From Escherichia coli (GTDB lineage: Bacteria > Pseudomonadota > Gammaproteobacteria > Enterobacterales > Enterobacteriaceae), in assembly GCF_003334255.1 (NCBI RefSeq), contig NZ_QOWU01000019.1: 64,000 bases of DNA; one strand, written 5' to 3'. How positions within the stretch are numbered: position 1 is the first letter of the stretch; every line of letters begins with the position of its first letter. Both the position numbers and the translations under genes were made by a program. Below the pieces are notes generated by a model. It was not told the DNA's origin. It saw only the letters and a list, made by a program, of their open reading frames with translations, and searched no databases. Below, one piece after another: positions 53,368 to 53,768 of the stretch.

Positions 53368-53464
53368 AAAACACCGTAGAACGTGTTGCGTGTGGCAATT
53401 AAAAATCTCAAAATTAAATGGCTTTTAATTCGGGTTCTTTCTTGCTCACCTTTCCCCTCTTGCA

Positions 53465-53489
53465 CCCTCCGTATACCGGAGGGTTTTTT
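53465..53489 (+). terminator. Orphan plus-strand intrinsic terminator inside a minus-strand late operon
   Basis: ccctccg-tatac-cggaggg followed by tttttt on the plus strand; no plus-strand gene precedes it. Confidence 0.45.
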
Positions 53490-53539
53490 GTTTCTTTTGC
53501 TGTGGACAGTGGTGCCGTTCTGATGCGCTGTGCCTGTTG

Positions 53540-53704
53540 TTATGGCAATACCCCGTTGACCGCTCCGCCAGCTGATTTCCTGGCGGCTGCTTCATCTATC
53601 TTTTTGTTCCAGAAATTGCGGACGGCTTTATATCCCCCTGAGATCAGATACAGAAGGGATACGGCGGTACTGAAATACAACATTATCTGATGAATAAATC
53701 CCAT
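53540..53704 (-). CDS. Small membrane protein (54 aa, one TM helix, basic tail); function unknown
   Basis: AAGGAG about 7 nt upstream of ATG; MGFIHQIMLYFSTAVSLLYLISGGYKAVRNFWNKKIDEAAARKSAGGAVNGVLP; below the track's length cutoff. Confidence 0.4.
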   Translation of the reverse strand: MGFIHQIMLYFSTAVSLLYLISGGYKAVRNFWNKKIDEAAARKSAGGAVNGVLP

Positions 53705-53768
53705 GGCTTGCTCCTTTTATTTTCCCGGTTGTCAGCGAGCTTCCCCGCCGGATGGCTGGGAAGCATTG

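Follow-up and report, generated by a model that had tools for sequence, protein, structure and literature searches.

In the 64,000-nucleotide stretch of Escherichia coli DNA analysed here (contig NZ_QOWU01000019.1; hereafter the window), the interval between a NanS-p-type esterase gene and the tail gene R of a P2-like prophage probably holds two independent genes that are carried with the esterase as parts of one 'moron': a DUF1378 gene on the minus strand and a small RNA (sRNA) gene on the plus strand. The plus-strand element is a unit of about 104 bp (positions 53386-53489) made up of a promoter-like site, a CU-rich body and an intrinsic terminator. Judged from its sequence, we lean towards reading this unit as an sRNA gene. 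It is probably a sequence-divergent and positionally displaced member of a class of esterase-associated prophage sRNAs that is already known.

The terminator was recovered by a terminator scan, by folding and through a stem held in common with relatives. It consists of ACCCTCCG-TATAC-CGGAGGGT followed by T6 (53464-53489, plus strand); the stem at 53464-53484 has 8 pairs, 6 of them G-C, and a 5-nt loop, and the TTTTTT run extends to 53489. This hairpin was the best-ranked terminator-like site in a scan of positions 51000-56000. Viewed from the minus strand its 5' flank is A6 and its 3' flank GCAAGAGG, without a U tract, and it can therefore terminate plus-strand transcription only. The initial annotation had proposed a canonical hairpin with T6 that is active on the plus strand alone, and this was confirmed. 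It had also called the terminator an orphan, a description that does not hold because the hairpin is the 3' end of the conserved promoter-body-terminator unit. The simple terminator scan itself performed no better than chance (8 sites, against 6.8 ± 2.9 in shuffled sequences), so that the argument for a real feature has to come from conservation.

A CCCTCC/GGAGGG stem with a T-run is also present in six relatives (L011, L021, L022, L105, L117 and L135). A profile built from L011, L021 and L022 only matched the window at 53386-53489 on the plus strand (E = 8.7e-7). With all six relatives in the profile and the window sequence excluded, the match ran from 53383 to 53489 on the same strand (E = 3.2e-7) and covered the whole unit, with the -35 hexamer at one end and the U tract at the other. 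This was the sole match at E ≤ 1 on both strands of the window, and a reversed-sequence decoy searched with the unit profile gave a best match of only E = 6.1. RNAalifold applied to a MAFFT alignment of 29 units recovered 6 terminator pairs only, with the stems of the P2-like units out of register; a covariance model was not built because a model dominated by the terminator would not discriminate.

Conservation also points to a sigma-70-type promoter at 53386-53414 on the plus strand, with a predicted -35 of TTGCGT (53386-53391), a 17-nt spacer and a predicted -10 of CAAAAT (53409-53414). The -35 hexamer lies 18 nt from the ATG of the R gene. The pattern TTGnGn-17-CAnAAT was invariant across the 7 aligned units, and invariant columns made up 9 of the 12 positions in the hexamers, compared with 11 of 66 in the spacer and body (Fisher p about 1e-4, uncorrected for relatedness). 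The looser pattern TTGNNN-N17-NANAAT occurred 6 times in the 128 kb that the two strands of the window represent. From the position of the -10, the fold and the homology of the unit we predict an sRNA of about 70 nt at 53420-53489 on the plus strand. Its predicted fold has an unstructured CU-rich 5' part (UUCUUUCUUGCUCACCUUUCCCCUCUUGC), the 8-bp terminator hairpin and U6, so that the overall architecture is that of a U/C-rich single-stranded body, a GC hairpin and a U6 tail. The prediction, made by sequence comparison only, fits the earlier suggestion of a plus-strand RNA of roughly 60-90 nt that ends near 53490. Two plus-strand open reading frames (ORFs) of 46 and 90 aa that cross the unit were considered as coding sequences and rejected: both continue across the terminator, and neither shows conservation in the relatives.

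The position of the related units was examined in DNA downstream of the esterase stop codon, taken from 80 IMG/VR loci together with reference phages and strains and comprising 47 distinct variants. In 46 of the 47, an A5-8 run and a stable hairpin, which together form an opposite-strand intrinsic terminator, were found within 11 nt of the esterase stop. For 38 of the 39 distinct units, an opposite-strand -35 lay approximately 95-145 nt past the stop, of the TTGACA type in the lambdoid loci and L023 and as TTGYGT in L011, L021 and L022. Wherever DUF1378 was present, its ribosome-binding site (RBS) came after the -35 of the unit. The stems vary by lineage (CCGCCAGCG, GCCGCCGG, GCCAGCG, CCCTCCG and GCTCCCG), with the hairpin and T-run constant. 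L011 is a sister P2-like contig whose R protein is 92% and whose DUF1378 protein is 73% identical to those of the window; its opposite strand carries a CCCTCCG...CGGAGGG stem and T-run in the spacer that separates the esterase stop from the start of DUF1378. The CCCTCC-type unit occupies this same place in the P2-like loci L021 and L022 and in the lambdoid loci L105, L117 and L135, the last three of which share the gene order esterase, unit, DUF1378, DUF826, holin. When metagenome contigs were scanned with a degenerate pattern, 10 family members and 22 chance matches made up the 32 loci recovered. Four of the members were of the window type and identical; the other six included two L105-like loci, which differ from L105 by one base in the loop, one L022/L106-type locus, one L011-type locus and the new lambdoid locus L135. 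The AsxR/PasD region of lambdoid loci, which precedes the esterase, also has hairpins of the CCCTCTCCGGAGGGG type with T-runs (L026 1268-1292 and L013 6676-6693), and these are weak matches of the window-type profile.

RNAs have been detected experimentally at the esterase-stop slot. PasA, PasC and EcOnc52 are Hfq-dependent and lie on the opposite strand (PMC8550237, PMC4104026). PasA of enteropathogenic E. coli (EPEC) E2348/69 is an 85-nt, Northern-verified, Hfq-dependent RNA with the homologues EcOnc51/52 in enterohaemorrhagic E. coli, and it has many trans targets in RNA interaction by ligation and sequencing (RIL-seq) (PMC8550237). PasA maps to the minus strand of NC_011601 (743499->743415), where it is flanked by the esterase and holin genes in the orientation '> < >'; an esterase-PasA-holin-lysozyme arrangement is also described in the preprint of Zhu, Shabalina & Storz (10.64898/2026.05.13.724894). 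EcOnc52 is a peak of Hfq crosslinking and analysis of cDNA (CRAC) on the minus strand of Sakai, 1181998-1182075 (PMC4104026), and the peak adjoins the stop of the esterase gene ECs_1088. At about 1.2705-1.2708 Mb, our guessed and unchecked coordinates for the 3' end of nanS-p in Sakai Sp5, the supplement of Tree et al. holds no EcOnc entry.

The window unit resembles PasA, PasC and EcOnc51-52 in being a probable opposite-strand gene for a predicted RNA in the range of roughly 70-85 nt, with a predicted promoter and an intrinsic terminator, tied to an esterase and, as is usual in that class, to DUF1378 also; its six homologues hold the slot and orientation of PasA/EcOnc52. It differs from the PasA type in its stem (CCCTCC/GGAGGG in place of GCCAGC/GCTGGC), in its -35 (TTGCGT in place of TTGACA), in its carrier, which is a P2-like rather than a lambdoid prophage, and in its position, since the PasA type abuts the esterase stop whereas the window unit follows DUF1378. 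Filing the unit in the PasA family itself was rejected, there being no significant similarity by nhmmer in either direction. The anti-sRNAs AsxR and AgvB of Shiga toxin (Stx) prophages (RF02703, RF02702), which are expressed in lysogens, are short opposite-strand sRNAs with intrinsic terminators at a moron site in a phage late region, as is predicted for the window unit. Their place is a different one, ahead of the esterase in the interval from stx to nanS-p (L014 722-776).

Several results weigh against the assignment of the window unit to an expressed sRNA of this class. The promoter-like site is weak: it agrees with the consensus at 7 of 12 positions, and the consensus scan did not report it. 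Stems of the CCCTCC subfamily share their core, so that almost no covariation is available. A profile of the lambdoid units that included EPEC PasA matched the window at E = 30, over the terminator only, and the reciprocal nhmmer search of the window-type profile against lambdoid PasA-type units was not significant. A search of positions 52500-54500 with all 4227 Rfam families at E ≤ 10 gave only a chance CRISPR-DR match. The PasA slot of 933W and of EPEC was likewise without an Rfam match, which indicates that the esterase-associated sRNA class is not in Rfam 15. Without detectable sequence similarity or an Rfam model, the link to the validated sRNAs runs through synteny, orientation and architecture, by way of L105, L117 and L135. 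The slot in the window is non-canonical, the unit standing between DUF1378 and R with its terminator 279 nt past the esterase stop. The window-type locus is finally near-invariant. It was found in 14 of 5426 complete E. coli genomes (with a 501-bp query, 12 of the 14 were identical and two 99.8% identical); its 172-bp spacer was 100% identical in 13 of these genomes and 99.4% in the other, and four metagenome contigs were essentially identical too, so that selection within the lineage is not assessable. A blastn search with the spacer against phages and E. coli genomes gave no match beyond the identical locus in the 14 genomes. Strains NCTC9112 (NZ_LR134079, 2152376-2152547) and EC2 are examples of lysogens with an identical copy.

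The displacement is peculiar to the window, the sole variant of the 47 whose esterase stop has no terminator beside it. The unit lies upstream of DUF1378 in all relatives and downstream of it here. The 64-nt spacer between the esterase and DUF1378 holds an imperfect hairpin (53739-53764, minus strand), GCTTCCC and GGGAAGC around a 12-nt loop, with no A- or T-run on either side. This hairpin may be a decayed remnant of the terminator that relatives have at this place. Tandem units are present elsewhere (EPEC PP2, L056, L066 and L075), which suggests duplication and loss of the first copy as an origin; it is plausible that the window arrangement arose in this way. Among the opposite-strand tandems that follow an esterase, L015 has its units at 2364-2470 and 2513-2640. 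The second copy of the EPEC tandem is PasA, and the end of the first copy matches the 'minor' 236-nt PasA 3' end.

The minus-strand gene of the pair is an annotated member of a known family and not a novel ORF. As the initial annotation had it, an ORF of 54 aa with a single transmembrane segment lies at 53540-53704 on the minus strand, starting at ATG, and is preceded by the Shine-Dalgarno sequence AAGGAG (53711-53716), which as read from the sequence stands 6 nt before the start codon. Its hydrophobic stretch, at about residues 5-24, forms one N-terminal transmembrane helix and is followed by a basic tail. The product matched PF07125 (DUF1378; E = 6e-21, model positions 1-45 of 59) and phrog_494 (E = 2.4e-23), and the Prokaryotic Genome Annotation Pipeline (PGAP) names it "DUF1378 family protein" in the 14 genomes with the locus. 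Homologues were found by tblastn in 309 phage records, nearly all Stx or lambdoid, where the usual partner is a NanS-p-type esterase. Alignment of 29 distinct homologues gave the invariant residues M1, L9, Y10, F11, V15, L20, S22, G23, G24 and A41 (an LYF...SGG core), and an alignment of 11 sequences that included a Stenotrophomonas phage member agreed with this core. Differences between the window and L011 genes numbered 8, 5 and 24 at codon positions 1, 2 and 3, and of the changed codons 17 were synonymous and 11 non-synonymous; the excess at third positions indicates that the ORF is under coding selection.

The DUF1378 family is small, with 39 representatives among 1.84 billion clusters, all of them short and stand-alone. 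Its recurrent neighbours are lysis genes, in three unrelated phage types; in lambdoid phages the gene sits upstream of S, and in the window lysC and the esterase precede it. The 933W copy is a 59-aa ORF that lacks annotation and is located between nanS-p (L0105) and the holin gene S, and DUF1378 and DUF826 ORFs have been noted between nanS-p and S (PMC10462455). The window protein is like those of 933W and other Stx phages in length, transmembrane helix, LYF...SGG motif and place in the late operon, where its gene comes just after that of the esterase. It differs from the Stx-phage proteins in that identity is about 50% and the next gene is R, not DUF826 and holin S. In Stenotrophomonas phage vB_SmeS_BUCT709 (L107 1917-3132), DUF1378 follows directly after a lysozyme gene and a 176-aa ORF, overlapping by 4 nt, so that the association of the family with lysis cassettes extends beyond the Enterobacteriaceae. 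In L012 a DUF1378 homologue (3999-4165) stands without an esterase, between tail-fibre genes and a Dam-like methylase gene. An 11-bp hairpin at L012 4185-4209, 20 nt past DUF1378, was flagged by the scan as an opposite-strand terminator in a window-like geometry, with no promoter-like unit seen.

The initial annotation had also raised the possibility that ORF and RNA form a type I toxin/antitoxin-like or lysis-timing pair, and this was not supported. Type I toxin-antitoxin systems with divergent sRNAs include tisB/istR-1, zorO/orzO and shoB/ohsC, and like the window they place a small hydrophobic peptide gene beside an oppositely oriented small RNA gene. In the specific form in which DUF1378 would be a membrane-damaging peptide whose translation or mRNA stability is controlled by the opposite-strand RNA, we regard the pairing as very doubtful. 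The protein is small and hydrophobic with a basic tail, recalling the Hok/TisB class, and it stands beside lysis genes in the three phage types; almost every lambdoid or P2-like relative has the RNA promoter some 20 nt from the start of DUF1378, and the relatives' RNA is complementary to the esterase-DUF1378 mRNA spacer in a divergent geometry reminiscent of tisB/istR-1 and zorO/orzO. These features of the relatives leave a small residual probability of functional coupling. The RNA predicted for the window, however, lies past the 3' end of the ORF and faces R. It overlaps neither the ORF nor its RBS, a 50-nt gap separates the end of the T-run from the DUF1378 stop codon, and specific complementarity to the ORF, RBS or 5' untranslated region is lacking; the geometry is not conserved. 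Pairing in trans was at background, RNAduplex giving -20.8 kcal/mol for the predicted RNA and the DUF1378 RBS/start region compared with -18.2 ± 5.1 for background; an 11-bp complementarity of CUUGCUCACCUUU in the RNA to the RBS sequence AAAGGAGCAAG was rejected for the same reason, being no better than random windows. The parts also occur independently in relatives. The RNA unit is intact beside a DUF1378 pseudogene in L022, L106 and L125, and DUF1378 is absent where PasA (EPEC PP2) and EcOnc52 (Sakai Sp4) are expressed; conversely, L012 and BUCT709 have DUF1378 without the promoter-terminator unit. The many trans targets of PasA likewise speak against this reading. In the P2-like loci L022 (3314-3463), L106 (3027-3110) and L125, the DUF1378 frame is stopped after about 20 codons with the upstream opposite-strand unit intact. 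A broader version would make DUF1378 and the sRNA a functionally coupled module conserved in hundreds of Stx, lambdoid and P2-like prophages, in which the lysogen's sRNA silences read-through mRNA, or triggers its cleavage, where that mRNA encodes a membrane-active DUF1378 peptide with a part in lysis or its timing, and the window is a rearranged variant whose control was lost or moved to R-S. We consider this very improbable; if true, it would be a previously unrecognised type I toxin/antitoxin-like or lysis-control system beside stx/nanS-p.

The unit might instead encode no functional sRNA, being either an inactive recombination relic or a terminator-only insulator against plus-strand (antisense) transcription into DUF1378, the esterase and the lysis genes. 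The weak promoter, at 7 of 12 consensus positions and uncalled by the scan, is compatible with such a relic or insulator, as are the displacement of the unit from the slot it holds in every relative and the want of variation at the window-type locus that would reveal selection; PasA-3 variants without a terminator are considered possible pseudogenes in the preprint of Zhu et al. (10.64898/2026.05.13.724894). The unit is nevertheless intact from -35 to U6, and its promoter hexamers and their spacing are the best conserved part outside the terminator, whereas a relic would be expected to lose its T-run or hexamers, as the 53739-53764 hairpin apparently did. An insulator would need something to insulate from, and no plus-strand gene or promoter upstream was evident in the ORF list, the promoter/terminator scan or the annotation. 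On this evidence we hold a relic or insulator to be unlikely, though deserving of weight. Much less probable, in our view, is that the A6-hairpin acts in the minus-strand late mRNA, as a 3'-end stabiliser of the processed transcript or an RNase III/E site between esterase-DUF1378 and R-S, with the T-run incidental. The hairpin does fold in the sense RNA too (z = -2.7), and the A-run and hairpin that 46 of 47 loci have behind the esterase gene could in principle be read as a sense feature. A stabiliser hairpin, however, needs no conserved A6-8 on its 5' side, which is sensible only as an opposite-strand U tract; the conserved opposite-strand -35 and -10 hexamers at fixed distance would be left unexplained, and the RNAs detected at the slot are opposite-strand.

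We therefore return to the reading of a DUF1378 gene and a separate sRNA gene. DUF1378 would be co-transcribed with the late/lysis operon and would yield the 54-aa single-pass membrane protein. The weak sigma-70 promoter at 53386-53414 would start the RNA at about position 53420, and transcription would end at the GC-rich hairpin and U6. The RNA would be made from its own promoter in the lysogen, where the late operon is silent. Its 3' hairpin, U-tail and U/C-rich body are the architecture of an Hfq-binding sRNA, and its targets would chiefly be mRNAs of the host or phage reached in trans, with PasA in EPEC as the model. Over its full length the predicted RNA is also complementary to the late mRNA, in the spacer between DUF1378 and R. 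No minus-strand terminator-like site was found between lysC and R in the scan, and no P2 Ogr-type late promoter dyad (TGT-N12-ACA) was found on the minus strand of 52800-57400, either upstream of R or within the moron. R and S must thus be expressed by read-through of the 2.4-kb moron, which fits a hairpin without a sense-strand U tract. Because the convergent sRNA promoter would be overrun in late transcription, the RNA would be expected mainly in the lysogen.

The late genes of the P2-like prophage run on the minus strand throughout this part of the window, in the order capsid genes, X, a holin-like ORF, lysozyme, Rz/LysC, the 656-aa esterase, the 54-aa ORF, R, S, V, W, J and I. The claim that all nearby annotated genes are on the minus strand held in the identical RefSeq locus annotated by PGAP, for every neighbour from lysozyme to I. 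The esterase gene (53769-55739, minus strand; ORF list and PGAP product name) encodes a SASA/NanS-p-type sialate O-acetylesterase of 656 aa with a DUF6645 C-terminus that matched phrog_143 (E = 3e-297), and it is a cargo gene between lysC and R. Aligned with the enzymes of 933W, EPEC and further loci, it was 54-57% identical. It is a rare allele, with the same 54-57% to all aligned NanS-p-type esterases and a best non-self identity of 57% among 578 IMG/VR relatives. The R gene (52897-53367, minus strand) encodes a P2 gpR-like tail terminator/completion protein (phrog_65 'tail terminator', E = 3e-54; PGAP). In canonical P2, the tape-measure and fibre/baseplate/R-S genes are co-oriented. In L001 the tape-measure and the next tail gene (1-3187, plus strand) converge on the fibre/baseplate/R-S genes (3223-9068, minus strand), in a region equivalent to the tail region of the window. 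Elsewhere in the window, matches at the Rfam gathering level were an RpsF leader (9369-9453, plus), the ES239 sRNA (29252-29374, plus), STnc450 (32726-32783, minus) and ES036/CssrF (32863-32905, minus). Host chromosome or other elements therefore appear to make up the first 33 kb or so of the window.

These findings do not change current understanding in a major way. They give DUF1378 a consistent link to lysis cassettes, and the locus rule of an opposite-strand terminator abutting the nanS-p stop, which held in 46 of 47 variants, could serve for the systematic annotation of such sRNAs. If the window RNA is expressed, it would constitute a sequence subfamily missed by BLAST- and Rfam-based surveys. 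PasA-type esterase-linked sRNAs would then not be limited to the lambdoid and Stx prophages of pathogenic E. coli but would also be carried on P2-like prophages in commensal and extraintestinal strains.

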